A DNA stretch of 64,000 bases, from IMG/VR virus record IMGVR_UViG_3300037423_002564; one strand, given 5' to 3'. Positions 1-16,475 of the stretch are shown here, piece after piece. This DNA comes from a virus. The position numbers and the translations under genes are program-made. The notes below the pieces were generated by a model that was not told the origin of the DNA, made no database searches, and saw only the letters and a list, made by a program, of their open reading frames with translations. Within the stretch, counting starts at the first letter, position 1; the number at the start of each line of letters is the position of its first letter.

Positions 1-449
1 GGGCCTGTTCTCGACCACGATGGATCCGTGGGACCCCAAGGACCGCCGCACCGACCCGTGGGACGACGATCTGTTCACCTACATGGGGCTTCAGATCTAC
101 GTCTACCACGACCAGATGGTCGACGAGCAGCGCCGCAAGATCGCCCCGCAGGCCCACTGGGTCGTCCTGCCGACCGAGGCCAAGTCCATGAAGCCGTCCG
201 ATCTCTTGGAGATGCTCGCGGCCTCGTTTGTGGTCATCACCACCTTGGTGGAGGATCTGCCCAATTACGAGACGTTCTGGTGCGAGCAGAACTTCGACAA
301 CGCCCCGTCCTCGCAGGCCCTGGAAGACGCGGTCGGTGACGCCATCGACAAGATCTTCCCCGACCACGAGATGCCGCTCTTGAGCTTCAGCTTGAGCGAC
401 GCCGAGCGCATCGTTCCCGTCCAGCCGGTCGTGATCACGACCTAGAGAG

Positions 450-821
450 GTGAGCCGCATGCGCGTAACCTGGCGCCACATCCTGCGCCTGGCCGAATAC
501 CAGACCATCCGGGGGGAGTTCAAGCCCAGGCCGGACCGCCAGTGCTGCGCCTGCGGCCACAAGTTCCCCTTGGAGGCCGAGGACACGGATGATCACTACT
601 TCGTCGCCTTCGACACGGACGGCGGGCGGCAGTTGGGCGGCGTGTGGTGGTGCCGGCGCTGCTGGCAGACCCCCGGCAAGGTGCCCATCATCGTGCGCGA
701 GGCCCTCGCCACGATCAACGTGGAGCAAGGGGAACTGTTCACGGTCCGCCACTTCGGCGTCCTTCTGGGCGTCTGGAACAACAACTGCGCGCCCATGGAG
801 CAGGCCGTTGAATCCCCTTGA
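450..821 (+). CDS. Small Cys-rich (two CxxC) protein with DGGR variant of DSGR motif; paralog of 1044..1358
   Basis: CCAC...FDTDGGRQLGGVWWCRRC aligns with WADSGRRLGGIMCCQTC. Confidence 0.75.
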   Translation: MSRMRVTWRHILRLAEYQTIRGEFKPRPDRQCCACGHKFPLEAEDTDDHYFVAFDTDGGRQLGGVWWCRRCWQTPGKVPIIVREALATINVEQGELFTVRHFGVLLGVWNNNCAPMEQAVESP

Positions 822-1149
822 TTGCCTGACCTGCGGCTACCGCATCTACGACCACGGCGACGTTCACCGGGACGTCTACACCTACACCTTCTACGCCGAC
901 TCCGGCCGCCAGCTCCGAGAGGGAAGCCGATGCCACACCCACTGGATTCCACCCACCTTCCTGCCGGGCCTGCTCGCCAAGCTCACGCTCAACACCTGGA
1001 ACGGCGAGATCCACCGGATCATCACGGGCTGGGCGCCAGAGCTGTGGAAGCAGGCGCCCGACTCACCTGGCGGGTTCTCCCGACCGCGGAAGAAACGTCG
1101 GAGTGGCACTGCACGTTCTGCTGGAAGGGTCTCAACGGCTACCCGCTAG
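808..1149 (+). CDS. Small CxxC protein with ADSGR motif
   Basis: TTG at 808 with GGAG 7 nt upstream; CLTC; YTFYADSGRQL. Confidence 0.7.
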   Translation: MNPLDCLTCGYRIYDHGDVHRDVYTYTFYADSGRQLREGSRCHTHWIPPTFLPGLLAKLTLNTWNGEIHRIITGWAPELWKQAPDSPGGFSRPRKKRRSGTARSAGRVSTATR

Positions 1150-1358
1150 TAGGCATCGCGGTCTACCAGTGGTGGGCCGACTCTGGACGGCGGCTGGGCG
1201 GCATCATGTGCTGCCAGACCTGCCAGCGCAACGGCGAGATGCCGGACTTCATCCACGTCAACCACGACCATCCCGGTCTCAAGCAGTTCTACGGCACCCA
1301 GGACGAGATCGAGCCCGTGCTCGGCATCGTCGCGTGGGGCCACCCCAGCCTCGCATAG
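1044..1358 (+). CDS. Small Cys-rich protein with ADSGR motif (start uncertain)
   Basis: CTFC...YQWWADSGRRLGGIMCCQTC. Confidence 0.7.
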   Translation: MEAGARLTWRVLPTAEETSEWHCTFCWKGLNGYPLVGIAVYQWWADSGRRLGGIMCCQTCQRNGEMPDFIHVNHDHPGLKQFYGTQDEIEPVLGIVAWGHPSLA

Positions 1359-3088
1359 AAAGGGACCACCCTATGACCACCGAATCCTACGACCCCGCGG
1401 CGTACTTCGCCGGCGCGCCCGCCAGCAAGATGGTCGACTACCACGGCCGCGGCATGGACCTCTCCTGGCCGCCCGGCCTCGACCCGAAGCGGGTGCAGCC
1501 GGGTCTCTACCGCCGGCACGGCCGCATCAACCCGGGCCACACCTTCCGCGTCTACGGCCTGGTCTACAACATGACCACGCCGCACGGCATGGGCGGGGAC
1601 GCCTGGGGCATGGGCGCCAACCAGAGCGCGCCCAAGATCCTGGTCGAGGCCCTAAAACCGCGGCCGGACGACGAGCCGCAGTGGCAGATGTACGAGATCC
1701 CCCACTTCACCCAGGAGTTCCTCAAGGCCGACGCCAAGAGCGTCTCCGACCCCGGCATCCACTTCTTCGAGCGCATCGGAGACTAGCCCCATGAACCTCG
1801 CGGAGTTCAACGAGCGCTGGCTGCGGGACCCGGACTTCCCCCAGGCCGTTCAGCATATGAGCATGCCAGACCTGGCGCGTCTGGTGGATGAAGCATCGGC
1901 GGCGTTCAAGGGGCCCGACCCGTTGCGCGGTATGATGCCGCGGGAGTTGCTGTTCTACACATACATGCGGCGGCTGGAAGCGTGGCTGCTGGCCTTCGAG
2001 CCGCCCAAGGCCAACGGAAAGAAGAGGAAGGACGCCTGATGGGCAAGCTATCACCGGAAGATCGCGATCGCATCGCCGAGCTGGAGGCCAAGGCCAAGGG
2101 CCAGGACGAGGTGGCGGAAGCCTACCGGCGCAAGGGCGACGACTACAACGCGGCCGACTCCGAGAAGGACGCGCGGAACCTGCGCGCGCACGCGGACTTC
2201 ATCCGCAACGGCGGCCAGCCGCCGGCCGAGGACGACTTCGGCGAGTACAGCGACCTGCTGCGTGGCGGCAAGACGCCATGAAGACCACCATCTGCTTCGG
2301 CTGCGCGCGCGTGGGCGAGCCCGCCACCCGCACCAAGATCGTGGGCCTGGCCTCGCCGCAGGAGACGCAGGAGCGCTACTGCCCCGCCTGCGGCCGGGAC
2401 AACGACCTGGTGGACCTCGACCCGGAGAAGGACCCGCTCTCCTACGCCCAGGACGTGGTGAGGGACTTCGCCACCGCCGTCGGCATCGGCGACCACTGGA
2501 CCGGCCCCAACTTCCCCTCCGCCCAGGTCAAACACGACGTCGAGCAGGCCATCCTGCGGCTGTACGGCCTGGCCCCTACCGAAGGAGATTCCCCGCATGG
2601 ATAAGGTGAACCGGGCGTTCTACGTGGGTAACAGCTACTGGAACGCCTCGCTGCAACAGTTCTGCGGCACCAACACCGAGTTCTCCATCACCTACGCCGG
2701 CCGCGACGTGCGTGCGGGCATCGGCGAGGTGGTCGTCATCGCCCCGGCCAAGGACAACCCGGCGGCCCCCGCGATCTTCGTCTTGGACAGCGGGACGGAC
2801 GAGACCGTCAGCTTCACGCGCATCCGATGAGGATCCACAACCCGAAGACCGGCCAGTGGGTGGAGACCCGCTGCACCGGATGCCCGTGCCACTGGCACAG
2901 CGCCATCGTGATGGGCGACGGCCTGGACGACGGTTGCTGCCGTGAGTGCGGCTGCCCCCGCAGCGAAGCCGGCTGGGCCTACTACGTCAAGGAGCACCCC
3001 GACCGCGTCCGCGGCCACGAGCCGGAGCTAGGTGGCGACACGCCCCGGCCCGGCGACGCCCCGGCGCTTGAATAGAAAGCGAGACCCC

Positions 3089-3337
3089 ATGAGCGACAGC
3101 GAGACCATCGTAGCGCTCGCGCGAGCCAAGCCTTGTCCGTTCTGCAACTCGGTCCTCTTGCGGATCGAGTACGAGTCCATGTCCCTGCGTGTCTGCTGCC
3201 AGACCTGCTATGCCAAGGGTCCCACCGCCAAGAGCGGCGACCCGCATCGGCTGCATCACGACGGCCGCGAGTACAAGCCTGCCGTCGACGCCTGGAACCA
3301 GCGGCGCCGCAAGTACAAGAACAGCAAGCTGGCCTGA
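3089..3337 (+). CDS. Lar-like restriction alleviation zinc-ribbon protein
   Basis: KPCPFC...CQTCYAKGP...AVDAWNQR matches the Lar family pattern. Confidence 0.7.
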   Translation: MSDSETIVALARAKPCPFCNSVLLRIEYESMSLRVCCQTCYAKGPTAKSGDPHRLHHDGREYKPAVDAWNQRRRKYKNSKLA

Positions 3338-3369
3338 TAACACCAGTTCTCTGGAAAGGAGGTTAAGCC

Positions 3370-4539
3370 TTGAGCATGGAGATACCGTCCACCCATTTCA
3401 ATGGGCGGAGCCTGCACGAGCATGCCGAAAAGCACTGGATGCGAACCACGCCAGAGGTGGTCTTGGAATACATCAAGACCCAATATCCCGTGATGCCCAA
3501 CAAGGACATCTCAAAGGAGATTGAAAAAAGGTTTGGTCAAGTCATTCCAGAGCACGAAATTATGCGCGCTGGCAACAAGTTTGGGTTCACGAAGAAGAAC
3601 AGGGGGCGCAAGCCTTCCGCCACCAAGCTGGAGTGGCCCGCGGAGGTCGACAACCTGCTGCGCAACTGGGCCGCGCAGGGGATCCCCCTGCGCGAGCAGC
3701 CGGCGCTCATGGATGCGCTCTTCCCGGGTCGCTACAACTACTACAACATCAACCAGCGGCGTAGCCTCTTGGGTCTCACCAGACGGTCCCCATGGGAGGG
3801 GCGCCCCACCGAGATCCTTGAGGACCGCTATGGCGTGTGGAGCACCCCGGCCATCGTGCGCGCCATTGAGCGCGAAACGGGCCAGAAGTTCACGCCGAAG
3901 GCCGCCCACGAGCGCGCCCTCAACCTGGGTCTAACCGCCAGCGACGCGCGCGGATGGTTCAACCTGAACGCCGCGTCGGTCGAGGTCCAGACCGACGTGC
4001 TCACCTTGGAGAGGTGCTGCAAGAAGCTCGGGGTTCCACTTCGCGGGCGCGGCACGTATCGATTCATCGACGAGCGCGGGATGGCGACGTTGCGCGGCGT
4101 CTTCCCCGACCTAGGGGAACCCGTGTTGACGGTGGACACGGCGGCGAAGGCACTGAGATGCACCGGGAAGGCGGTTCGCGCGCTAATCCTTGGTGGGCAC
4201 CTTTCGGCCAGACGCTGGGGTCTCCACAACCAATGGCTGATCCCAGAGCGAGAGATTGCGCGCTACAAGAGCAAGCCAGGCTGGTTTCGTGACGATGTCC
4301 GCTGGACCATTTTCGGGCATCTACTTGACCATCATCTGTTCGCGGCGCGATCGCTAATGCCTGTGATCGACCGCCGGGATGGCGTAAGCCTGGTTCCGTC
4401 TCCGACGTGGGAGAAGACCCGCTACCGCAAGGGCGATCCAATAGGTCGAGTTATTGGGTTTTCAGCAGGCGTGCTTCATCTTGAGTCGCTGTACGGCCCG
4501 GTCGTGGTTTCCCTGGACGATACACAGCCAGAAAGTTAG
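3370..4539 (+). CDS. Multi-HTH DNA-binding protein with excisionase/MerR-like HTH; paralog of 56338..57162
   Basis: LTVDTAAKALRCTGKAVRALILGGHLSARRWG...WLIPEREIARY; lower GC at both ends. Confidence 0.7.
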   Translation: MSMEIPSTHFNGRSLHEHAEKHWMRTTPEVVLEYIKTQYPVMPNKDISKEIEKRFGQVIPEHEIMRAGNKFGFTKKNRGRKPSATKLEWPAEVDNLLRNWAAQGIPLREQPALMDALFPGRYNYYNINQRRSLLGLTRRSPWEGRPTEILEDRYGVWSTPAIVRAIERETGQKFTPKAAHERALNLGLTASDARGWFNLNAASVEVQTDVLTLERCCKKLGVPLRGRGTYRFIDERGMATLRGVFPDLGEPVLTVDTAAKALRCTGKAVRALILGGHLSARRWGLHNQWLIPEREIARYKSKPGWFRDDVRWTIFGHLLDHHLFAARSLMPVIDRRDGVSLVPSPTWEKTRYRKGDPIGRVIGFSAGVLHLESLYGPVVVSLDDTQPES

Positions 4540-4546
4540 GCATCTC

Positions 4547-4717
4547 ATGTCAGAATGGTACGTGCTTATGACGGACAGCGGGAGGCCAGTTAGAGATATT
4601 CTGGCATTCTCTGTAATAAATGCGCTTCGCCAGGTTCCAGGCTACATGGTGGCAGAAAGAATGTTTCCGCTTAGGAGTAATATACCAATTGGGGATTATG
4701 AAGATGACGACGAATAG
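4547..4717 (+). CDS. 56-aa low-GC protein with TDSGR motif
   Basis: MSEWYVLMTDSGRPVRD; acidic tail. Confidence 0.6.
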   Translation: MSEWYVLMTDSGRPVRDILAFSVINALRQVPGYMVAERMFPLRSNIPIGDYEDDDE

Positions 4718-5090
4718 ATGTCAAAGAATCCCAACCGGCGAGAAGTGGGAGTTGGAGCGCACCAACCAGTGCAAAAACTGCCCGTGGAAGGTGAACTCCA
4801 ACCCGTTCGAGATTCCAGGCTACGACCCCGTGATGCACGCCGGCCTGGCCGACACGATCGCAGACCCGGACAACGTCGACCTGATGGCCCTCACGAAGCC
4901 CTTGCGCGCCATGAGTTGCCACGACGAGGAGGAAGCCTACTGCGTGGGCTGGCTCTACAACCAGCTCAACCAGGGCAACAACGTGGCCCTGCGCGTGCGC
5001 ATGTCGCACTGCACCAACGCCAGCAAGCTCCGGGTCTTCGGCGAGCAGCATGAGACCTTCGAGGACACCATCCCCACGCGGAAGGAGTGA
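4704..5090 (+). CDS. DUF6283-like Cys-rich protein
   Basis: CKNCPWK...MSCH...CVGWL..Q...GNNVALR. Confidence 0.65.
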   Translation: MTTNRCQRIPTGEKWELERTNQCKNCPWKVNSNPFEIPGYDPVMHAGLADTIADPDNVDLMALTKPLRAMSCHDEEEAYCVGWLYNQLNQGNNVALRVRMSHCTNASKLRVFGEQHETFEDTIPTRKE

Positions 5091-5867
5091 ACGCGCCATG
5101 CGAGCGTACAAGACCAACATCAAGCAGTTCGAGGTCGTCGGCTTCCACGACCTCCCCAAGGTGGGCCAGGCCGTCCCCGTCCTGGTCGAGCGCTCGGACT
5201 ACAAGGGCCACCAGGGCCAGGAGCAGTTCGAGCAGTACGGCCACGTTTTCCGCGTCGTCGCCGTGGATGCCGATGCCATGACGGTCGAGCTGGAGCAGAT
5301 GGAGACCAACCCGCTGATGAAGATGCAGCGCCCGCTGGTCCACGGCGAGCAGCGCAGCGCTTGGGGCAAGACCGAGTTCAACGTGCTGGAGCAGCGCCAG
5401 AAGGCGACCAGCACGGAGGAGCACTCTTGAGGCCCGAGGACGACGAGCCCACGGAGGCAGAGATCGAGGAGATCCTGCGCGAGGGGCGCGAGAACCCGCT
5501 GCCCCTCGACGATGCCAAGCGCCTGCTGCGCAAGGTGGGCGAGCATCTGGGCATCCCGCCGGAGGAGGCCGACCGCATCGCCGAAGAGCGCGAGCGTCTG
5601 GACCGCGGACATGACCAGTGATCAAGGGCTTATTTTATATATCGCCCGTCGCTCCGCCGACAAGAGCGGAGCCCCAACATTAAACGCCAAGGAACTTAAG
5701 TGGATTCTCGGCATCATTCTCGACCGACCAATTACTGACGAATGGCTGAAAGAGACAATGTCTGGAATGCTTAATGAGTTAAGACAGTAATTCAGAGAAC
5801 CATTCTTACCAGGAATTTCCCGCGAGCGGAGCCAGAAACCCGCATCGTTACGTGGAGGTAAACCACC

Positions 5868-6242
5868 TTGGAAAACATCACCATCAAGACCGTGGTCTTC
5901 CAACGCCCCGAGCGGGACGGCGGCACCACGGCGATCGCCCACTTCCACATGGTCGACGACACCCGCCCGCCCCTCGCGCGCCTCAAGGAGGCGCTGACGA
6001 AGTGGGTGGCGTTCACCAGCGCCGGGCGGGACGCCTGGAAGTCCAGCAGCGAGGACTTCAACATCGGCGACCTCCGCGATTGGTACGGCGACTCGATGCT
6101 GCACTACCTCAACGAGGAGGGCATCACGAGCATCGTGTTCGAGGCCGTGCGCGACAACAACGAAGTGGTCGCCTACGACGAGCGTCTGGTGAACGACGAC
6201 GAGATCGACTTCAACGAGCCCGTCGGCATGGAGCAGGGGTAG
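5868..6242 (+). CDS. Hypothetical phage protein
   Basis: GGAGG SD, TTG start, typical codon bias; SSEDFNIGDL motif. Confidence 0.65.
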   Translation: MENITIKTVVFQRPERDGGTTAIAHFHMVDDTRPPLARLKEALTKWVAFTSAGRDAWKSSSEDFNIGDLRDWYGDSMLHYLNEEGITSIVFEAVRDNNEVVAYDERLVNDDEIDFNEPVGMEQG

Positions 6243-6482
6243 ATGGGGAAGACCGCCAAGGATCAGATGGAGGCCAACAAGGCGTTCGTCCGCAAGCACT
6301 TCCCCCTGGCCCGCTCCGTGGTCCAACACAACGGCGACTACGCTACCTACGAGATCCTCAACATGGGGACCACGGGCAGCAGCGCCAACAGCACCACCGA
6401 CGAAGCGACGGCCTGGTACTACGCGGCGCAGGCCGTGCAGCGGAAGCTCGACCGCGAGGCCAAGCTGAAAGAGGGCAGGTAG
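6243..6482 (+). CDS. Small protein, FVxxx[FY]PxA...ExxAWxxAA paralog family
   Basis: KAFVRKHFPLA...DEATAWYYAA. Confidence 0.65.
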   Translation: MGKTAKDQMEANKAFVRKHFPLARSVVQHNGDYATYEILNMGTTGSSANSTTDEATAWYYAAQAVQRKLDREAKLKEGR

Positions 6483-6869
6483 ATGGCTTCAACCCTCACT
6501 GTCACGCCGGCGATGATAGATGCCCAGAGGGAGGACATCGCATGCCTCGAAAGGCAGCTCGCTCGGGCCAAACAAGAACTCCGCGACATGCAGGAGGCAT
6601 GCCGCAAAGGCGAACCCCTCCCCATCTAGGAACGCAGGAGGTACACAGGGTGACATTCAAGCGCTACGGAGGCTGCCCCCACTGCAACATGGGCCTTGAA
6701 GGTCGCAGCAAGTGGTGCAAGCACTGCCGGAAGTCGGTGAAGCCTACCCTGGCAACGCCAGCGTGGGACAGCCCGAACGACCATGCCGACGCACCCTACG
6801 ATGTGCGAGAGCAGTTCTCGTGGTGGTTCTGGCTGACGGCCAGGTTGCGTTTCCGCAGGTAGGAGCATC

Positions 6870-7088
6870 ATGTCGAAGAAAACCAAGAAGAGCGAGGGCG
6901 ACAAGGAGTTCGTGCTGGCGCGCTTCCCGGGCGCCAAGGCCGCGCGCCGGAAAGTGTACGCCGGCACCAAGACCTACGGCTGGGTCATCGAGGGGGTCGG
7001 CGGCCTGCCGATCGCCCCACAGCAGCGCGGCGAGGATGCCGCCTGGGCCGAAGCGGCCAAGGCCATCCGCAACTACAGGGAGCAGTAG
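6870..7088 (+). CDS. Small protein, FVxxx[FY]PxA...ExxAWxxAA paralog family
   Basis: KEFVLARFPGA...GEDAAWAEAA; AGGAG SD. Confidence 0.7.
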   Translation: MSKKTKKSEGDKEFVLARFPGAKAARRKVYAGTKTYGWVIEGVGGLPIAPQQRGEDAAWAEAAKAIRNYREQ

Positions 7089-9586
7089 CCATGTGGCATC
7101 TCATCACCGTCGACGGCTACGTCGAGGGACCCTACAAGGGCAAGGGCGGCGTGGTGGCCGCCAAGGACGAGGCGATGAACCTCGCTCTGGATCCGCGCCG
7201 CCGCGAGTCGGCGTTCAAGACCCTGCGGGAGGGCGAGTACGAGCATACGGTCTACCGCGGCTACGAGGGCAACCGCTGGCCCTGCTTCTACGTCGTGAGC
7301 AGCGACCGCCTGAAGGAATGGCCGGCGGCCTGGGCCCAGTACCAGGAGCGCATGAAGGGCCCGCCGCTGCCGACCTATGGCCTGGTCAACAAGGACGGCC
7401 TGGACGTGCTCCAGGTGGGCGGCCTGCTGCCGAACGAGCCCGGTCAGCACGACGTCACCAACTGGCACGCCCTGGTGGACGCCGCCGGCATCCGCGCCTA
7501 CTTCGGCGAGCCGGAGCTGGCCCGCTTCGTGAGCCATGTGCTCGATCCGGGCCTGTGGGGCGCGCTCACGGACGACGACCGCCGGCTCTTGCAGGCGGCG
7601 CTTGACGGCTCCAAGTAAGATCATGATGGAGAAGGAGACCGGCATGGCCGACCAAGACGTTCAGGGCAACCCCTTCGAGGCCATGTTCAAGGCCGCCAAG
7701 GAAGACGGCGGGCGCACGCCGGTGAAGGAGCTGGCGCAGCGCTTTGACGTCACGCCGATGTACTTCGTCACGCAGGTCGGGCGCTACGCCCGCTCGCAGG
7801 GCCAGTCCATCCCCATGATGGACTGGAAGACGGAGTTCATCGCCCCGGACGACCGCCAGCCCGAGCAGTGCTTCCGCCGCGGCTACTGTCACGGCTACCA
7901 GCAGGCCGTCGAGGACTTCGAGGCCCTGCTGGCCCAGGCGTACCCCTACCGCGAGGCCAAGGTCGCGCGCATCGTCAGCACCCTGGGAACCTTCCTGTAC
8001 GAGCGCCTGACGCAGTTCTGGCGCTACCACAAGACCCAGGAGTTCCCGGTGCCGGTGCCGCATCTGCTGGACGAGGCCAACCGGCCGCTGCGCAAGCAGG
8101 AGACCACCTGGTGGAAGCGGTGACGCACTTCACGGACGAGCGCGAAGCCTTTGACGCTGGCTTCGCCTTCGCGTTTGACTGCCTCCAGAAGCTGATGGGC
8201 TTCGAGGGGCCGGAGGGGGTTCTGGCGCTCTTCGATCAGCCGTCCCCCGCCGATAGCCTTGCGCCGGCACTTGCCCGGCACGAGAAAGGATCACCCCATG
8301 CAACTTAAGCCAGGCGACACCTTCACCGCGGACAACGTGCAGCTCCGCATCGTGGAAGGCCCCGACGGCACGCAGAACCTGGAGCTGGACGACACGTCCG
8401 ACGCCGACTTCTACATCCTTGACGAGGACGTGAGCCCCGACAAGCGCTACGTCAACTGGGACTCCAGCACGCGCTCCTACGAGGTCGACGACCCGGAAGA
8501 GGACGAGGACGACGATGGGGCTGAATAACCGGGAAACCCGCGAAGAAGCCCGAGAAGAGTTCATCGCCACCGGACACACGGAGTACAAGCACTTCTCCAT
8601 CGCCAAGGGCTTCCGCGAGGGCGAGGTGATGATGTTCGGGGTGCATCTGGGCACCTACGAGAACATCGACAAGGCCCTGGACACGCTCGACGCCTACGAG
8701 CCGCCGCTCAAGATGTCGATGTCGGACTGGGGCCTGATCAACAGCCATGGGTGAGCCGTGATCCGCGCGCCCGTCGAGATCCACTGCGACTCCTGCACCG
8801 ACTGGATCCACGGCTACACCGACATCCCGAAGAAGGCCCTGGAGGAAGCGAAGCGCCAGGGCTGGATTCGGCGCAGGGACCCCGACACCAAGAAGATGCA
8901 GGACGTCTGTCCGAAATGCCAAAAAGGCAGGAGTAAAGCCAAAGATGGACCTCATCATCAAGATGAACCTAGATAACGCCGCCTTCTCGGATGGCAACTC
9001 CGAGCACGAGCAGGCCCGCATCCTGCGCAAGCTCGCGGACGACATCGAGAAGTTCAAGGACCCCAGCGCCCTCTGGGACCTGAACGGCAACCGCGTGGGC
9101 ACCGTCGAGTACATCAAGTAGGAGCAGCATGAAGAAGAGCTTTGAGATCACCGTTACCATCGAGCTGGAGACCGTCGGCGAGGGCGGCCTGGCCGAGCAC
9201 GAGGGCGGCAAGACCCGCGAGCCCTCGAAGGACGACGCCATCGCGTTCGTCGGCCGCGCCGTGGAGTACTACGCCGGCCGCGGCATCGAGGACGACCAGA
9301 ACGCCCCGACGCGCCTGAACGACGTGCTGGCGCGGGACTGGAAGACCCGCTAATGAAGCAGGTCACGCTCCCCGACTTCCTCACCCAGCGGCAGATCGAC
9401 CACGCGCTCCAGCTCTACAGCGGCAACCAGGGAACGGAGCGCCACAAGGCGATCCGCGACCAGGTGATCGCTCCGGCGATGGAGGAGATCAACCGCAAGC
9501 TGGGCCAGGAGAACGACCCGGACTACCTCACCTACATGGTGGAGTACGTCTTCGGGGCTGCCAGCAAGTAGCGGGGTAAGATCACC

Positions 9587-9638
9587 AAGGACGTATATCG
9601 CGGGCTCGCTTGTTGGCGACCCGCGTTATCACGACCTT
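9587..9638 (+). promoter_or_regulatory. Long imperfect hairpin in a 220-nt intergenic region upstream of the operon carrying eight DSGR genes
   Basis: AAGG..CGT..CGCGGG-CTCGC / GCGA-CCCGCG..ACG..CCTT complementary arms; TAAGAT at 9577. Confidence 0.45.
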
Positions 9639-10288
9639 TCTCGGCGGCGGCGCCAAGATCGCCATGTTATCTGGAGCCGAAAATTCGGGCCGATCCCGAA
9701 GAACCGCTCCAAACCCGGAAAGCTAGTAAATTAGCCATATAAGGCTGGTTATCCCGACAATTCGATTTATGTCCAGCAGGAGGATTTACAGATGGGCGGA
9801 CCATCCGCGGACACCCGCAGCGACATCTACCGCGTGGACCGGCAGAAGGTTATCTTGCTCTTCCTCGCCGGCCAGGCGCTGACAGAGCGGCCACGCACCC
9901 GGTACGAGTTGAGCCACGACGTCATCCGTGACGGCGACGAGCTGCGGCTCGTGATGTATGGCGAGCACGTCGTCGCCACCCGCAACTTGAGCACGGGCGC
10001 CATCACCATCGACCACTGCGGCTGGCGCACCAAGGAGAGCCAGAAGGTGATCGAGCCCATCCTCGTCCACTTCTTCGGCTACGTGCTCACGCTCTTGGTC
10101 AAGGGCCGCGGCCGTGGGAGAAACCGCGACCGCGAGCCGGTCTGGCGCATCGTCGGACCGACGGTCGATGTGTCGATCGAGTTCGACAACGCCGTGACGT
10201 TCACGCCGGTGGCGCCTTCGGTCTGGGACGTCTCGTCCGAGTTCTCCAGCGAGTTCCGGCGCTTCAACCTGGCCGCGCGGGCGTCGGC

Positions 10289-10675
10289 ATGAGCTGGGAG
10301 ATCGTCCAGGAGCGCAACGGCACCGTCGACCTGAAGCGCATCCTCTACGACCGGCTCTCGGGCGAGGACACGGTCCACGCCACGGCCTGGATGGTTGGCA
10401 AGCTGGAGCTGCGCGGCCTGGCCGCCTACGCCTGCATGTTCGAGCACAAGTACTTCGACTCCGAGCGTCACAGCCAGGAGGGCGTGGGCGTGGTCATCAT
10501 GATCGAGCCCCAGCCCCAAGAGGGCCGCTTCCACATCAAGGTGATGGACGAGCGGGAGGGGCCCCTGGCCTACGACTGCCCGAAGGAGGTGCTGGACCTG
10601 CTGACCCCCACTGACGACCCGAAGGCGCTGGCCTGGCGTGCCCGCTGCAAGGAGCGTCTGGGATGCGCTACCTAA
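10289..10675 (+). CDS. DUF6927-like protein
   Basis: KVMDEREGPLAYDCPKEVLDLLTPTD...AWRARC. Confidence 0.7.
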   Translation: MSWEIVQERNGTVDLKRILYDRLSGEDTVHATAWMVGKLELRGLAAYACMFEHKYFDSERHSQEGVGVVIMIEPQPQEGRFHIKVMDEREGPLAYDCPKEVLDLLTPTDDPKALAWRARCKERLGCAT

Positions 10676-11343
10676 TCAAGGACCTGGCGGACCTGCTCGC
10701 GCTGGGCTTCATCGTGGAGCGCGACCCCGACGACACCTACGGCGCGGCCTATCCGCACGCCCAGCACTGGTGGGACATCGAGCGCAATCCGCGGGACGAA
10801 GGCGTGTTCGTCGACGTCCGCCTGGCCGACTCGCCCATCGAGTTCGGCGTCGCCATCGAGCCCTGCCGCAGCATGTGGGCCGACCGCATGCGCGACTCCG
10901 GCAAGGGGCTCCAGCACGTCTCCTGCTACCGCGTGGAGGAGCGCCGGCAGTTCGTGGGCGCGTTGCCCGAGACTTGGAGCGGCTTCAAGATCGAAGAGGC
11001 CAAGAACGGCGGCGTGGACATGTTCTGGACCCGGCCTACCGTCAACACGGACGGCCTGCTGACCATGCTCAAGTTCCGCCGGTGCTGGTCGTTCACGGAG
11101 ATGAAGGTCTACCTGCCCAACGAGACCGGCGATGCCTGGCTCGTGCGCACCCACCACGCCGACGGCACGCTGGACTACCGCTTCTGGGACCTGCGGGCGA
11201 TCGCCAACCGCATCGTCGACTTCATGGAGGACCCCTTGGCGTGGGTGCAGATCGACCACCCGGATTCCCCCGATAAGTTCGCAAAGGAGGTGGCGCATGC
11301 CCGAGATATTGGCGCCTTCAGCAAGATTCCAAGCCGACCTTGA
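10663..11343 (+). CDS. Hypothetical protein with RDSGK motif variant
   Basis: Coupled ORF, typical codon bias; MRDSGKGL. Confidence 0.7.
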   Translation: MRYLIKDLADLLALGFIVERDPDDTYGAAYPHAQHWWDIERNPRDEGVFVDVRLADSPIEFGVAIEPCRSMWADRMRDSGKGLQHVSCYRVEERRQFVGALPETWSGFKIEEAKNGGVDMFWTRPTVNTDGLLTMLKFRRCWSFTEMKVYLPNETGDAWLVRTHHADGTLDYRFWDLRAIANRIVDFMEDPLAWVQIDHPDSPDKFAKEVAHARDIGAFSKIPSRP

Positions 11344-12046
11344 GCGCCTGACGGCCCAAGGCTGGAAGATCGACTACCACGAGGGCTACCGCAAGTTCTA
11401 CGACGCGGTGGACTTCATCGACCTGGCCGAGATCGAAGTGGGCCGGGCTTACATGAACGGGCCGCTGGACGACGAGGTCGAGCTGGTGCGCATGGAGCTG
11501 GGCGATTACGGCATCATGCTGTGCAAGAAGAAGGCGTTCAGCCTGGACTGGCAGCCGCTCGTGGACTCCGGCACGCGCGAGTTGGGCGAGTTGCAGGAGT
11601 GGGAGAACAAGAAGCCACCCGAGGCCGCCTGCGTCGCGTTCCGCAAGGTGCTGCGCGACATCGCGGAGTTCCACCGCCGCGTCGGCAAGGCCACGCCCGA
11701 CAAGCCCGATGGCCTGCTGGAGTCCCAGGTAGACGGCTACACCGGCTACTTCTCGTGGACCTGGGACATGGTGGACCAGCTCTACGTCTACGTCCACCTG
11801 CCGAAGGCCGGCTGGGAGCTGGAATACGAGGACCGCTGGTTCCACACCCTCACCGACCTCCAGGCCACGTTCTGGGAGATGATCGACAAGTACATGGGCC
11901 ACGACGCGGAGTCCCGCGGCGAGGACGACGACGACCACGAGGGCGACCTGATCGACCGGAGCTGGGCGGCGAAGGTCCGGCCCACGGACCCGATCATCCG
12001 CCCTGCCACCCGGAAAGGGGTTCGAGAGCATGTCTACTTCGAGTAG
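11297..12046 (+). CDS. Acidic hypothetical protein with VDSGTR motif variant
   Basis: AGGAGG SD before ATG 11297; PLVDSGTRELG. Confidence 0.7.
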   Translation: MPEILAPSARFQADLERLTAQGWKIDYHEGYRKFYDAVDFIDLAEIEVGRAYMNGPLDDEVELVRMELGDYGIMLCKKKAFSLDWQPLVDSGTRELGELQEWENKKPPEAACVAFRKVLRDIAEFHRRVGKATPDKPDGLLESQVDGYTGYFSWTWDMVDQLYVYVHLPKAGWELEYEDRWFHTLTDLQATFWEMIDKYMGHDAESRGEDDDDHEGDLIDRSWAAKVRPTDPIIRPATRKGVREHVYFE

Positions 12047-12425
12047 TCCCTACAACACGCTGGGCGTGAAGCGCAACACGGAGCACCACCTGCGGTTGCT
12101 CGTGGGCCTGGCCGCGGACACCGGTCGCGTCTACTTCACCCGGCCACACAAGTGGCGCATCCGCATGTTCGTGGTCAACGAGAACCGCGAGCTGGTGGAG
12201 TTCGAGCCCACGGGCAACCCGATGAAGCTCACGGGCGGCTCCCAGGAGGAGCTGGACGTCCACCGCCGGCAGGAGGCGAAGCTGATGGGGTTCTGCCTCA
12301 AGAAAAGAGCCCTCTTGGCGGCCACTGTGGAGGCCGCCAATATGCCCGCGGCCACCTTCGGCTCCCTCTGCCGGGTCGCGGGGGTTCCCGTGCCCAAGGT
12401 AACATATCACAGGCTCGACGAGTAA
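12030..12425 (+). CDS. Hypothetical protein with ADTGR motif variant
   Basis: LVGLAADTGRVYF. Confidence 0.7.
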   Translation: MSTSSSPYNTLGVKRNTEHHLRLLVGLAADTGRVYFTRPHKWRIRMFVVNENRELVEFEPTGNPMKLTGGSQEELDVHRRQEAKLMGFCLKKRALLAATVEAANMPAATFGSLCRVAGVPVPKVTYHRLDE

Positions 12426-12793
12426 TGGGAGCGATCGCCTACACCCATGACGGGGACGTCTATTGCACGAGCTGCTGCGAGGCAGAAGAGGACAACCCGG
12501 AGCAGGGCGCCATCTTCCCCTGGAACGAGATCGACCACCGCGGGCTCTTCTGCGGCCAGTGCCGGCGGGCGATCGTGGACCCCCAGAGCCCTCCGTTCGT
12601 TCGCCTATTCGTGGCCGATTCCGGCCGCGCCTTCCGCGAGGAGAAGTGCGGCCAGGGCTGGATCCCCTCCGGCATCCCCGACCATGTTGCCGACGCCATC
12701 AACGATATGGACGATCACCACGTCATCGAGTTCCTGGACGATGACGGCCTCCTCAACCTGGCCGTCGGCACGGAGGTGCGCCGTGCCGGGTGA
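12425..12793 (+). CDS. Zn-ribbon protein with C-terminal ADSGR module
   Basis: IAYTHDGDVYCTSC...CGQC then RLFVADSGRAFRE. Confidence 0.7.
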   Translation: MGAIAYTHDGDVYCTSCCEAEEDNPEQGAIFPWNEIDHRGLFCGQCRRAIVDPQSPPFVRLFVADSGRAFREEKCGQGWIPSGIPDHVADAINDMDDHHVIEFLDDDGLLNLAVGTEVRRAG

Positions 12794-13136
12794 GGAGCGC
12801 ATTCGCGAGCCAGACCCCCACCTCTTGGAGGGCTGGGAGGTCTACGTCGAGACCATCTTCTACAACGACTCGGGCCGCTTCATCGGCTCCAAGCACACCT
12901 GGTGGCCCGAGACGCCGGCGGAAGTGCTCTACGCCTTCATGGACAACCAGTATGTCGCCGACATCGCCCATGAATGCCTACCTTACGGCATCTGCGCCGA
13001 CATCTACGCCAGCAGGATCGAAGGGAGAATCTGCAAATGTCCGCTACCTGTGAGGCGCGCGCCGGGACCGCCCGGTACGTGCGCCTGTGGCGCCAATTAC
13101 GGGTCTTCAACAAGTGCTACACCATCCAGGAACTAG
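12783..13136 (+). CDS. Hypothetical protein with NDSGR motif and Cys-rich C-terminus
   Basis: GGAGG SD, GTG start; TIFYNDSGRFIGS. Confidence 0.7.
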   Translation: MPGEERIREPDPHLLEGWEVYVETIFYNDSGRFIGSKHTWWPETPAEVLYAFMDNQYVADIAHECLPYGICADIYASRIEGRICKCPLPVRRAPGPPGTCACGANYGSSTSATPSRN

Positions 13137-13921
13137 ACGAGCGGGTGCGTGATGCGGTCTTCGAGAGGATGCGCAACGACCCGAACCAGTGGGACTACCA
13201 CGACAGCGAGATGTGCAGCGAGGACGCCAAGCACACCCTGGAGCGGTTCGGTTACGAAAACCAGGAGGTGAGCTGGAGCGCCGGCTTCTGCCAGGGCGAC
13301 TACTTCAACTTCGCCAGCGGCACCGTGCGCGACCAGTTCGTGATCCGCCGGGTGATGGGCAAGCGCGCGCGCCGGCTGGAGCGCTTCTTCGAGAAGCGTG
13401 GTCGTGACCTCTACCGTCTCATCGGCATCAGCGTGAACGCCGGCTACCGCGGCCTGGACCGGAACTCCCGCGAGATCGTCATCTCGCTGGACGAGCAAGA
13501 CCTGGTGGTGGGCGGGACCTTCACCGCCCTGGCCGATTCCGGCCGCAAGCTGGAGGCCCACACGTTCACCACCTACAACCTGGGCAGCGGCCTGGCGCGC
13601 GAGCTTCAACACGAGGTAGAGGGGAACTGGAGCCGTTGGGGCGAGGATGGCGCGGACCCCGTCGTCCGCAAGGTGCGCGGGTTCTGGTACGTCGTGAAGC
13701 CCATCACGATGAACGAGTTCATGGAGAAGTTCGTCTCCGATCTGGAAGCGGCCGTCGAGGCGGACTGCGACCGCATCTGCCGGAACATCCTAAGCGACAT
13801 CCACGACGAGATCATGTACAAGTCCAGCGACGAGTACCTCGCGGAGGAGTGCGAGGGCCGCGACCTCTGGTTCGACAAGGAAGGCGAAGAGGTAGACCTG
13901 CCCCATGGATACCCCCGGTAG
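13037..13921 (+). CDS. Acidic phage/plasmid protein (family often mis-annotated as antitoxin of TA stability system) with internal ADSGR segment
   Basis: YTIQELDE...WSAGFCQGD...YKSSDEYLAEECEGRDLWFDKEG; insert FTALADSGRKLE. Confidence 0.6.
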   Translation: MSATCEARAGTARYVRLWRQLRVFNKCYTIQELDERVRDAVFERMRNDPNQWDYHDSEMCSEDAKHTLERFGYENQEVSWSAGFCQGDYFNFASGTVRDQFVIRRVMGKRARRLERFFEKRGRDLYRLIGISVNAGYRGLDRNSREIVISLDEQDLVVGGTFTALADSGRKLEAHTFTTYNLGSGLARELQHEVEGNWSRWGEDGADPVVRKVRGFWYVVKPITMNEFMEKFVSDLEAAVEADCDRICRNILSDIHDEIMYKSSDEYLAEECEGRDLWFDKEGEEVDLPHGYPR

Positions 13922-14243
13922 CGTCTGCCGGCAGTGCGGCCGGCACTACATCCAGTGGCTCCACGTCCGCTTCTTCGCCGACGTGGGCAACCGCGTACTG
14001 GGCTATGTGGCCGGCCCGGCCATCTGCTTTCCCCCGGCCGTCCAGAAGATGGCCTGGAGCGCCATCAGGAACAACTGGGGCTTCACCAAGGTCCAGTTCC
14101 TGCCGGAAATGGCCGGCCGCCTGGTGCAGGTGAAGATCGGCAGCGCGATGGACCACTGCCTGCTCTGCACCCTCACCGACGATGGCATCTTTGCCAGGAG
14201 CTACCGCAGCATGAACGGACTTGGCGATGACGGCAACGGCTGA
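13905..14243 (+). CDS. CxxC protein with ADVGNR motif variant
   Basis: CRQC...VRFFADVGNRVLG. Confidence 0.65.
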   Translation: MDTPGSVCRQCGRHYIQWLHVRFFADVGNRVLGYVAGPAICFPPAVQKMAWSAIRNNWGFTKVQFLPEMAGRLVQVKIGSAMDHCLLCTLTDDGIFARSYRSMNGLGDDGNG

Positions 14244-14571
14244 CGAATACGAGGCCGCGACCCAGCGGGACCCGCTCTCGCGCATCTGCTTCCACTGCGA
14301 CCGGAAGTTCTCGCCCAGCTTGGATTACATCCGCGCCGCGGACAGCGGGCGTTCGCTCCACCAAGGCGGTGGCCCCGCCATCATCCTCACGCGCCACGAG
14401 CGCATGTTGCTCGGGCGCTTCTCCAAGTACAACACGGACGGCACGTCCAAGCTTCACAACGTCCCGCACAACCAGATGATTGATGGTTGCTGGTACTGGG
14501 GCGACATCCACCTCGAAAGCTGCTGCTCGACCTGGTGTCAGCGGAAGTGGTACGAGGAGAACCACGATTAG
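14227..14571 (+). CDS. CxxC protein with ADSGR motif
   Basis: CFHC...YIRAADSGRSL...CSTWC. Confidence 0.7.
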   Translation: MTATADEYEAATQRDPLSRICFHCDRKFSPSLDYIRAADSGRSLHQGGGPAIILTRHERMLLGRFSKYNTDGTSKLHNVPHNQMIDGCWYWGDIHLESCCSTWCQRKWYEENHD

Positions 14572-14580
14572 GAGATCGAC

Positions 14581-15528
14581 ATGATCAAGCTCTCCAACGG
14601 CCTGATGGCCGACATCTCCACCCTCAAGCTCGACCGCTTGCAGCGGCTACCGCAACTCCCGGGCGGCATGGGCGTCAACACCCAAATGGGGTCCGGCTGC
14701 TTCTTGGAGCCGCCGGGCCACCCCAGCTATTTCATGCGCTCGGTCGGTGGCGACTGCCGCGCCTACGTCATCAGCATCGGCGACGGCGTCTATATCGTCG
14801 ACGGCGAGACCTACAACGGTGGCTGGAAGGACGTTAACTGGGTCAAGTACGGTGCGCCGAAGGATCGCCAGGAGCGGCTCAACTGGCTCTACAGTCCGCT
14901 CCCTGTCGACCACCCGCGGGTGCGCGCCTGGATCGAGCAGCTCTACCGCCACCAGCGCAACTGCTACCGCATCGAGGGCGAGAAGGACTTCGTCGTCTTC
15001 CCGACGCAGTCCCACGACTTCATCAAGATGGGGCTGTTCGTCCCCGAGCCGTCCGGCCGCGAGGCCAAGCTGGAGGGTGGCATCTTCGACCACCTCTCCG
15101 AGGAGACCAAGGAGCGCTACCGCGTCACGCAGGCCGGCCTGATGGCCGAAGCCCAAGAGACCGTCAAGATCAAGCGCGAGGCGTTCAACGCGGAGCGCGC
15201 CAAGGCTTGCACGCCCGATCGCCACCTCGCGGTCTTGAGCGTCCGCAAGTTCTACCCGGAGTACCAGCCGGAGCTGGACCTCATCAACGCCGAGCAGGGC
15301 GCCCGGCCGGCCGACTGGTGGACGGTCCTTGCCACCAAACCCGATCCGTGCCCGATGGCCCACAAGCCGCATATGCGCTTCGTGTGCCAGTACTGCGGCG
15401 ACAAGAGCGACGGCACGCCGGGTCCCAACGGCGAGGTCTACAACAACGCCAAGGACGGCAACAAGGAGGTCTACGCCGGCTACGTCTACCACAACGAAGC
15501 CGCCAAGGTCGAGGCACCTCGGGCATGA
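14581..15528 (+). CDS. Hypothetical protein
   Basis: AGGAG SD, 315-aa ORF with typical codon bias. Confidence 0.7.
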   Translation: MIKLSNGLMADISTLKLDRLQRLPQLPGGMGVNTQMGSGCFLEPPGHPSYFMRSVGGDCRAYVISIGDGVYIVDGETYNGGWKDVNWVKYGAPKDRQERLNWLYSPLPVDHPRVRAWIEQLYRHQRNCYRIEGEKDFVVFPTQSHDFIKMGLFVPEPSGREAKLEGGIFDHLSEETKERYRVTQAGLMAEAQETVKIKREAFNAERAKACTPDRHLAVLSVRKFYPEYQPELDLINAEQGARPADWWTVLATKPDPCPMAHKPHMRFVCQYCGDKSDGTPGPNGEVYNNAKDGNKEVYAGYVYHNEAAKVEAPRA

Positions 15529-16091
15529 TGACCATCCGCGTGAGCGTGGACCACGGCGAGCTGCGGCGCGACGAGTTCTCGTTCTACTTCGAGCCCCTGC
15601 GCAACGAGTTGCGGCTGTCGGGGTACGAACGCCAGACGCGGAAGAGCAAGCGCGCCAAGTTCGTCGCCGTGGCGGCCTATCCCTCCAGGCGCCCCTTGGA
15701 GGTCCTGCGCGAGTATCAGGTGCCGCTCACGGCCGCCGTGATCGCCGAGGCCCACCAGCAACTCGTGGACCGCGTGCGCGCGGCCAAGCTGCCGGAGCCC
15801 AACCCCAACTTCCCAGAAACCCCATGAACACGCCCATCGACGCGAGCCGTCACTTCGTCGATGGGTGCGACCCCTGTATGCGCGCCCAAGAGGATGACAC
15901 GACCTACTTCGACCGCTGCACGTTCTGCAACCGGCTCGTGACCACGTATTGGTGGCTTCACGACGAGCAAGCCCACCCCGCCAACGGCAACGAGTGCGAG
16001 GTGTGCTTCTACAAGGCCGTATGCGATGCTTGTGCGATCGTTATCGACAGTAACGGTGCCATCCTCTGTCCCCCATGCCGTGATGCGCGGC

Positions 16092-16475
16092 ATGGCCGAA
16101 AGGTTGCACCCGGTGGAAGACCATAAAACCTTTGTCATTACCAGCTACCCCAACGCCTTCGCCATCTTGGTCGGCGACACCTGGCAGGTGTGGAGCGGCG
16201 ACGCGGCGGAGCTGCTGATCGCCGCGGCCGAAGGTAGCGAGGACGTAGCCTGGCAGGCCGCCGCCAAGCTCATCAAGGACAACCAGGTGGCGGCCGTGAA
16301 CGCCTCCTACCAGGAGGTACATCGCTGCGCCAAGGCCATCGAGTACGAGGCCCAGCGCATCATGCACGCCGCGGAGATGCGCCGGCCCCAGGACGTGATG
16401 CACCACTTCAACAAGCTCCAGGACTTCTACACGCTGCTCGCCAACGAGCGCGTGATGCTCGTGGCCTACGAATAG
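16092..16475 (+). CDS. Protein of FVxxx[FY]PxA...ExxAWxxAA family with helical C-terminal extension
   Basis: KTFVITSYPNA...SEDVAWQAAA. Confidence 0.65.
   Translation: MAERLHPVEDHKTFVITSYPNAFAILVGDTWQVWSGDAAELLIAAAEGSEDVAWQAAAKLIKDNQVAAVNASYQEVHRCAKAIEYEAQRIMHAAEMRRPQDVMHHFNKLQDFYTLLANERVMLVAYE

Follow-up and report, generated by a model that had tools for sequence, protein, structure and literature searches.

A DSGR-type motif repeated across small genes of an uncultured soil jumbo phage as a candidate hairpin turn in a zinc-finger-like domain

Why should eight consecutive, overlapping genes of a virus each carry a single copy of the same short peptide motif? These genes are found on the + strand at 10663-14571 of a 64,000-nucleotide stretch of DNA (the window, to which all positions given here refer) from the IMG/VR record IMGVR_UViG_3300037423_002564, and the motif is of the DSGR type, that is, a match to D-[STV]-G-x(0,1)-[RK]. 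The original prediction, made from the letters and their open reading frames, described the genes as an array of functionally equivalent effectors, without other detectable similarity and unified by a peptide tag. Its account of the layout proved accurate, as the eight genes (named A to H here) contain exactly one match each, encode proteins of 226, 249, 131, 122, 117, 294, 112 and 114 amino acids, and overlap head to tail by 47, 17, 1, 11, 100, 17 and 17 nucleotides, successively. The notion of a tag fared less well: the genes do lie in tandem, are coupled in translation and diverge fast, and the motif occurs far more often than chance would allow, but D, and probably G and H, form one paralogous family with three genes near the start of the window (r1 to r3), in which the motif appears to be the turn of a central beta-hairpin. 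The explanation that we favour, with some reserve, is that of a structural hairpin turn inside a zinc-finger-like binding scaffold.

The excess of the motif is clearest for its exact form. From A to H, the matches are RDSGK (10894), VDSGTR (11564), ADTGR (12117), ADSGR (12617), NDSGR (12867), ADSGR (13535), ADVGNR (13980) and ADSGR (14341), so that exact DSGR is present in D, E, F and H only. In the whole window, it occurs nine times in + strand frames, all of them at 898-21077, and once in a - strand frame, with no further copy in any frame. When the residues of a 112-protein gene set were shuffled 2000 times, DSGR was expected 0.26 times on average and 3 times at most. The loose pattern has 13 matches in this gene set, against 3.07 +/- 1.78 expected and a maximum of 12, and the set leaves out three carriers (r2, E and the gene at 4574); beyond the first 21 kb, it is matched three times, which corresponds to the background rate. 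The codons of the motif vary among the copies (GAC or GAT for Asp; TCC, TCG, TCT or AGC for Ser; GGC, GGA or GGG for Gly). Because the codons differ, with Ser specified by TCN in some copies and by AGC in others, it is the peptide that is conserved.

The further run of three carriers that had been predicted at 450-1358 is real and lies on the + strand. The canonical member, r1 (459-821), encodes 120 amino acids with four Cys and has DGGR as its turn. The second gene, r2 (808-1149), contains CLTC, YTFYADSGRQL and CHTH, and its tail overlaps r3 out of frame, while r3 (1044-1358) contains TWR, CTFC, YQWWADSGRRLGG and CCQTC. Public gene calls include only the last 50 amino acids of r3 (P0077), and frame analysis points to the GTG at 1044 as its most likely start. 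In six carriers (r1, r2, r3, D, G and H), a CxxC pair is located 14-22 residues before the hairpin turn and is followed by a hydrophobic strand, ADSGR and x-L. With these six sequences as a seed, leave-one-out hidden Markov models (HMMs) recovered only r2 and r3, and the test became informative once paralogues from a contig of a distant relative were added. These came from L004 (3.9 kb, 1-3863), the source of P0047, which was the one new small protein retrieved by HMMER with the six-sequence profile from 1.84 billion representatives. Four r1-like genes stand in tandem on L004; a homologue of the window gene 20-445 comes before them, and a 51%-identical homologue of the window gene 9792-10292 comes directly after. 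Since the array abuts the latter homologue, about 8.4 kb (1359-9791) must be either absent in L004 or inserted in the window. With the L004 genes included, leave-one-out HMMs gave E=6.4e-19 for r1, 4.1e-6 for r2, 1.7e-6 for r3 and 3.5e-4 for D, each of them being the first match after the model's own sequences; no such model retrieved A, B, C, E or F.

The full-length alignment including the L004 genes runs from an N-terminal T-W-R-x-I through CxxC, the hairpin, L-G-G-V-W-W-C-x-x-C and a Pro-helix to a C-terminal L-G-V, with two Cys, the Asp and the Pro invariant. The layout common to the family is thus W-R, CxxC, strand, A-D-S-G-R, strand, CxxC and Pro-helix. The second knuckle (CxxC or CxxH) is complete in r1, r3 and the four L004 genes (L004a-d), retains one Cys in D and G, and has none in H; the Pro-helix can be aligned in D and G. 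Among the 1.84 billion representatives, the family was found only in the phage itself, its strain variants and L004. When D, F and the family alignment were run against 5.8 billion proteins, nothing came back apart from near-identical strain variants, the genes of L004 and proteins of the window itself. Likewise, no match was obtained by megablast and tblastn against 50,697 phage records for positions 10000-15000, for F or for a 708-amino-acid protein, in IMG/VR scans with D, F, the neighbour 9792-10292 and an exact 51-mer, or in a JGI metagenome scan with that same neighbour.

How far the eight flagged genes belong to this family was assessed with HMMs, with hhalign against family profiles (one of them, A3, built without G and H) and with a flank test. 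The latter uses a reduced alphabet and the flanks of the motif alone, is trained on eight secure members, and gives the upper-tail fraction of all window positions: 0.0012 for G, 0.0023 for the protein at 4574, 0.019 for F, 0.027 for C, 0.09 for H, 0.14 for B, 0.17 for E and 0.17 for A. Only D, G and H have a CxxC upstream of the turn (CGQC, CRQC and CFHC, respectively), this pair being absent in A, B, C, E and F. Gene D (12425-12793, 122 amino acids), which contains FPWNEI, CGQC, VRLFVADSGRAF, KCGQGW and IPDHVADAI, is by profile comparison demonstrably a member of the r1-type zinc-finger-like family and a paralogue of r1-r3 and the four L004 genes; its orthologue in a related contig, L001, is 91% identical and keeps the motif.

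Gene G (13905-14243, 112 amino acids; CRQC, VRFFADVGNRVLG and AICFPPAVQKMAWSAI) aligned to A3 with P=2.7e-4 over 55 columns, the best value for a non-seed sequence among 115 window proteins, and H (14227-14571, 114 amino acids; CFHC, YIRAADSGRSL and GGGPAI, with the second knuckle lost) was third-best with P=7.2e-4. In leave-one-out HMMs, both were the first non-seed match, at E values that are not significant (0.29 for G and 0.076 for H), and BLASTP aligned them to each other in register with E=0.01. A zinc-ribbon mini-protein encoded at 2278-2604 (CFGC ... CPAC) scored P=3.4e-4 against the family profile, over its N-terminal part and first knuckle. As this zinc ribbon scores like G and H, we regard these two as probable, not proven, members of the r1-type family that have lost part of the second knuckle; the family may also grade into other zinc ribbons of the region, such as the one at 2278-2604.

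The remaining genes are more distant. Gene E (12783-13136, 117 amino acids) has ETIFYNDSGRFIG at 12867 and no CxxC, and its last 100 nucleotides overlap F out of frame; it matched profile A2 with P=0.0012, in an alignment over P-x-x-V-L-Y-A, and A3 with P=0.01, values that are not significant over about 115 tests. Gene F (13037-13921, 294 amino acids) has TFTALADSGRKL at 13535 in a Cys-free C-terminal part, and its residues 28-120 match phrog_5162, a family of unknown function, with E=7.4e-13; this is the only match that Pfam, PHROG and NCBIfam provide for any of the eight genes, and a single homologue of F, 92% identical, was found among the 5.8 billion proteins. Gene C (12030-12425, 131 amino acids) has LLVGLAADTGRVYF at 12117 in a hairpin-like context without Cys ligands. 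In gene A (10663-11343, 226 amino acids), RDSGK is preceded by MWADRMR and lacks a strand-like flank, and in gene B (11297-12046, 249 amino acids) the VDSGTR match is aligned over 14 columns. The hhalign scores of A, B, C and F are at background level (P=0.19, 0.078, 0.09 and 0.052, respectively). Judging from these comparisons, the motif of A is probably a chance match, and that of B is probably either chance or the result of a divergence too great to tell. The original claim that the eight proteins share no other similarity consequently fails for D, G and H; for E, F and C, no homology was detected.

An AlphaFold2 model of r1, built from an eight-sequence alignment (predicted local distance difference test, pLDDT, 72; predicted template modelling score, pTM, 0.69), places the motif within the domain. 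Strands 46-53 and 58-65 flank D54-G-G-R57, in a block with pLDDT 79-86, and a helix at 66-70 follows the second strand, with C65 and C68 at the helix start. The modelled arrangement of knuckle, hairpin and knuckle is typical of treble-clef and zinc-ribbon fingers, and the C-x2-C ... C-x2-C spacing, together with the position of the second pair at the helix start, suggests that the family binds zinc. Going by this model of moderate confidence, the motif rather likely occupies the turn of a long beta-hairpin that leads into the second, putative zinc knuckle.

These results can be put together as follows. The DSGR-type motif would be the tight turn of a long beta-hairpin that forms the core of a small, lineage-specific zinc-finger-like domain, in which a short W-R helix, a CxxC knuckle, strand 1, A-D-S-G-R and strand 2, whose end passes into another CxxC that opens a helix, are followed by a conserved Pro and a helix. 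A gene of about 110 amino acids would have been multiplied in the phage by tandem duplication, and its copies would have diverged until the turn and the first knuckle were nearly all that sequence comparison could detect. Gene D would then be a clear member, and G and H probable ones with part of the second knuckle lost, whereas E, F and C, which have the strand-turn-strand only, may be either decayed or fused derivatives or independent users of a favourable turn, and A and B are most likely chance matches. The motif would be kept because the turn nucleates and closes the hairpin, its exposed Arg possibly aiding binding, and not as a detachable tag. The proteins might be early-expressed binders of host or phage macromolecules, with a constant scaffold and variable surfaces, an idea already put forward for the zinc ribbons expanded in other jumbo phages.

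The way in which the motif drifts is informative in this regard. In the L004 paralogues, the corresponding residues are ADSQR, ADSGR, TDAWR and TDGGM, while the Cys, Pro and hydrophobic positions of the scaffold are kept. Since the tetrapeptide drifts and the scaffold does not, the pattern is that of a structural element and not of a recognition tag. The original prediction had allowed that its run might reduce to scattered chance hits if the variant motifs were unconserved in homologues, and in part this is what the L004 genes reveal, as their tetrapeptide varies. Between the window and L001 (5.9% diverged), the motif codons differ at three places, all synonymous, and the two strain variants that fall inside motifs, at 12875 and 13537, are synonymous as well. 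In H, four residues beside the motif have changed in the L001 orthologue and ADSGR is kept. The numbers of non-synonymous and synonymous codon changes between the window and L001 are 11 and 12 in D, 23 and 16 in F, and 21 and 10 in H. At the strain level, these comparisons indicate that the motif is under purifying selection. Rates of change are very unequal between neighbouring genes, as only a single replacement separates the window from L001 in E, and likewise in G, and the next gene downstream (14581-15528) is only about 58% identical.

Several observations weigh against a purely structural turn inherited within one family. Exact DSGR is present in five proteins without a detectable relation to the family (E, F and those at 4574, 18151 and 21077), far above the 0.26 expected, and the common descent of these five with the family is assumed. 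In the flank test, F, C and the protein at 4574 find support, but E, 18151 and 21077 do not. The model of D has the same strand-turn-strand at a low confidence that makes it unreliable (pLDDT 45), and the r1 model found no convincing fold match in the PDB (Foldseek, VIA wide), BFVD or the ESM Atlas, the best values being Z 4.1 and a Foldseek E of 0.43. Zinc binding, in turn, is deduced from Cys spacing. Finally, because a hairpin tip is exposed to solvent, it is conceivable that the turn has a binding role common to its carriers. A feature search of the ESM Atlas returned unnamed clusters only. The most economical assumption is that the Cys-free carriers arose by decay or fusion of family copies; for instance, F would join an N-terminal half related to phrog_5162 to a Cys-free part. 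In the 21077 protein, the motif is followed by YFFVR-C-x-x-C. As the descent of these five proteins is assumed, explanations by a shared epitope or by convergence keep some weight.

The turn itself has a counterpart in a well-known fold that bears on both. Most of the large proteins retrieved with the family profile are bacterial WD40 proteins, which we take as independent support for a hairpin turn; their repeats read VRVWDADSGREI, VRIWDADSGKQL or VAFDAAGRRIVSG, with scores of up to E 7e-26 that are the sum of 6-15 weak repeat stretches and do not reflect homology. In five such proteins (P0002, P0007, P0009, P0012 and P0036), almost all repeats contain W-D-A-D-S-G-[RK], and short hairpin profiles score spuriously high against them, with E down to 1e-26. 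In a WD40 repeat, the segment after the WD dipeptide is the turn of the hairpin between strand C and strand D. As ADSG[RK]xL recurs in these repeats, it seems to be a general solution for a hairpin turn, and the likeness between the family and WD40 proteins is, by this comparison of sequences, a shared turn solution and not homology.

An alternative that stays close to the original prediction is that the exposed A-D-S-G-R tip is a functional epitope or tag for a single partner, which might be a host target, a phage chaperone, a modifying enzyme or a packaging factor, and has been kept or acquired on related and unrelated scaffolds alike. This would account for the five carriers without family homology, which represent about 20 times the expectation, for the confinement of all carriers to one strand within the first 21 kb, and for the conservation of ADSGR in H while its flanking residues changed between strains. 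We nevertheless consider it unlikely, as the tetrapeptide has been lost in L004 paralogues (DSQR, DAWR and DGGM) that keep the positions of the fold, r1 itself has DGGR, and the motif always lies between strand-like segments, never at a terminus or in a linker. Moreover, the same pentapeptide is an ordinary hairpin turn in WD40 proteins, and no candidate reader protein was identified.

A second alternative, to which we give about the same modest credence, is convergence: E, F, C and the other Cys-free carriers would be unrelated, and D-S-G-R would be the optimal turn for small, beta-rich early proteins at the amino-acid and codon composition of this phage. Here the recurrence of ADSG[RK]xL in unrelated WD40 repeats counts in its favour, as do the profile comparisons of C, F, A and B, which reach background level only. 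By contrast, shuffles that preserve composition give a mean of only 0.26, the other ~43 kb of coding sequence in the window contain no DSGR, and the flank tails of A, B, C, E and F, taken together, look like those of the family (Fisher combination ~0.004).

A little less probable still, in our judgement, is a combination of paralogy and tagging, in which the zinc-finger paralogues would display the A-D-S-G-R tip as a shared recognition element, and this tip would also have been grafted onto, or have persisted in, the otherwise unrelated proteins E, F, C and those at 4574, 18151 and 21077, so that all of them dock to one partner in a phage-encoded structured-epitope system. Lastly, it is highly improbable that the signal belongs to the DNA or RNA, as a binding site or a small hairpin whose translation merely happens to be DSGR. 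Three copies do share an identical 12-mer, GATTCCGGCCGC, with the rare GAT (P ~2e-4 under independent codon choice, computed post hoc), and GCC-GAY-TCC-GGC can form a stem of 4-5 bp. Against this, the other six copies use different codons, including an AGC for Ser that breaks the stem; when one mismatch is allowed, the 12-mer shows no enrichment (4 copies, 1.2 being expected, a count reached in 3 of 100 shuffles); and avoidance of GCGGCCGC accounts for most of the odd codon choice. This 8-mer, a NotI-type site, is absent from the whole window, compared with 10.2 +/- 3.2 occurrences in shuffles. The commonest codon set for DSGR (GAC AGC GGC CGC) would create it, and all three copies with AGC for Ser take the rare GGG for Gly. 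These patterns suggest that restriction-site avoidance shapes codon choice at the motif.

As to the setting of these genes, the window has 65% guanine plus cytosine (GC) and is densely coding. Its first 36 kb consist of small open reading frames (ORFs), nearly all of them on the + strand, after which come genes of the replication type (an SbcC-like ATPase, an O-like initiator, a DnaC-like loader and a C5 methylase). Proteins identical to those of the window are present on a 203,790-nucleotide contig, and DNA of the window is represented in soil and rhizosphere metagenome runs, none of which is listed as RNA. Third-position GC of the A-H frames is high (0.86-0.90 where scored), and the genes called independently by JGI on L001 reproduce the D-H layout, apart from F, whose start is placed later. 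By the same measure, the frame switches at ~13010-13055 between E and F and at ~1040-1075 between r2 and r3; both pairs overlap out of frame by about 100 nucleotides, and in both the tail of the upstream gene is rich in Arg and Pro.

Upstream of the array, an intergenic leader (9572-9791, + strand) is non-coding and partly AT-rich, with a Shine-Dalgarno-like AGGAGG before the ATG at 9792. It is followed by the genes 9792-10292, 10289-10675, A-H and 14581-15528, which may form an operon co-transcribed from this leader, an arrangement suggested by the gene overlaps only; a consensus scan of the leader found no sigma-70 promoter. Further downstream, a Cys-rich ORF at ~15830-16126 ends in CAIVIDSNGAILCPPC, in which a strand, a D-S-N-G turn, another strand and CxxC resemble the second half of the family. 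In three stretches (10734-11001, 11404-11537 and 13280-13413), many contigs less than 90% alike were recruited in four soil or rhizosphere runs, with a summed depth of up to 88, and these stretches may be segments like the DNA of other organisms or elements. A joint skipping 11491-13378, seen in two soil runs, has a shorter side of 20 letters at 80% likeness and was treated as cross-matching from other organisms.

What the analysis adds for this undescribed family is the link to L004, the grading of the eight genes by membership, the account of the turn through WD40 repeats and the evidence from motif drift. In large phages, many early genes encode tiny Cys-rich proteins without a name in databases, and this case illustrates a route by which such a family may be recognised: one hairpin turn outlasts the other features of the sequence, and the array of a distant relative supplies the missing links. 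It also yields a definite signature for the family, together with revised gene starts in an uncultured soil jumbo phage. Should the Cys-free carriers prove to share a partner through the hairpin tip, the phage would have a novel means of directing many proteins to a single target; otherwise, the family would join the other lineage-specific expansions of small zinc-finger scaffolds of unknown function.

Compared with known systems, the array is reminiscent of anti-defence or host-takeover islands in being dense, on one strand, and made of small, overlapping, fast-evolving ORFan genes. A Lar-type restriction-alleviation gene is found in the same region (3032-3337); it encodes a small CxxC...CxxC protein that was assigned to Lar_restr_allev (PF14354) in the precomputed Pfam annotation of an identical Logan contig, and that scores P=0.0028 against the family profile. 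Unlike in such islands, no match to a known anti-defence family was obtained for any of the eight genes. In the literature, a search combining DSGR with phage brought up no relevant paper. The likeness to the C-D hairpin of WD40 repeats (WD-A-D-S-G-[RK]-x-L) extends to an identical pentapeptide in a strand-turn-strand setting, but the window proteins have one hairpin each, with neither a four-stranded blade nor repeats, and Pfam WD40 (PF00400) matches none of ten window proteins.

The model of r1 also recalls the treble-clef and zinc-ribbon mini-domains (TRASH/YHS, eL24, YacG and ZZ-type), in which a CxxC is likewise followed by a hairpin with an Asp/Gly/basic turn and by a second CxxC at the start of a helix. 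TRASH and eL24 have a D-G-K turn that may resemble that of the family. ZZ-domain chains represent about 10 of the top 50 rows in the fold search, with Z 2.5-3.7 over 48-54 aligned residues, where the meaningful level of the tool is Z ~8. In contrast to TRASH, eL24, YacG and ZZ, the domain has about 100 amino acids with additional N- and C-terminal elements; in Pfam, neither the eight genes nor r1 and r2 had a match at E<=1 to these types or to any other family, and a PDB profile search gave only matches with E>=0.35, to LIM and CPxCG fingers.

The nearest parallel described so far is found in Bacillus phage G, in which a lineage-specific expansion has produced about 35 copies of a zinc ribbon (Iyer et al. 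2021, PMC7824862). No sequence relation to those zinc ribbons was found; the present family has its own signature (W-R, CxxC, ADSGR hairpin, CxxC, Pro-helix), and several of its copies lack some of the putative zinc ligands. Like the zinc-ribbon expansions of jumbo phages, it nonetheless consists of many diverged, small, Cys-rich copies of unknown function, partly in tandem, in one large genome; for the expanded zinc ribbons, roles as specific transcription factors or structural DNA-binding proteins have been proposed (PMC7824862).

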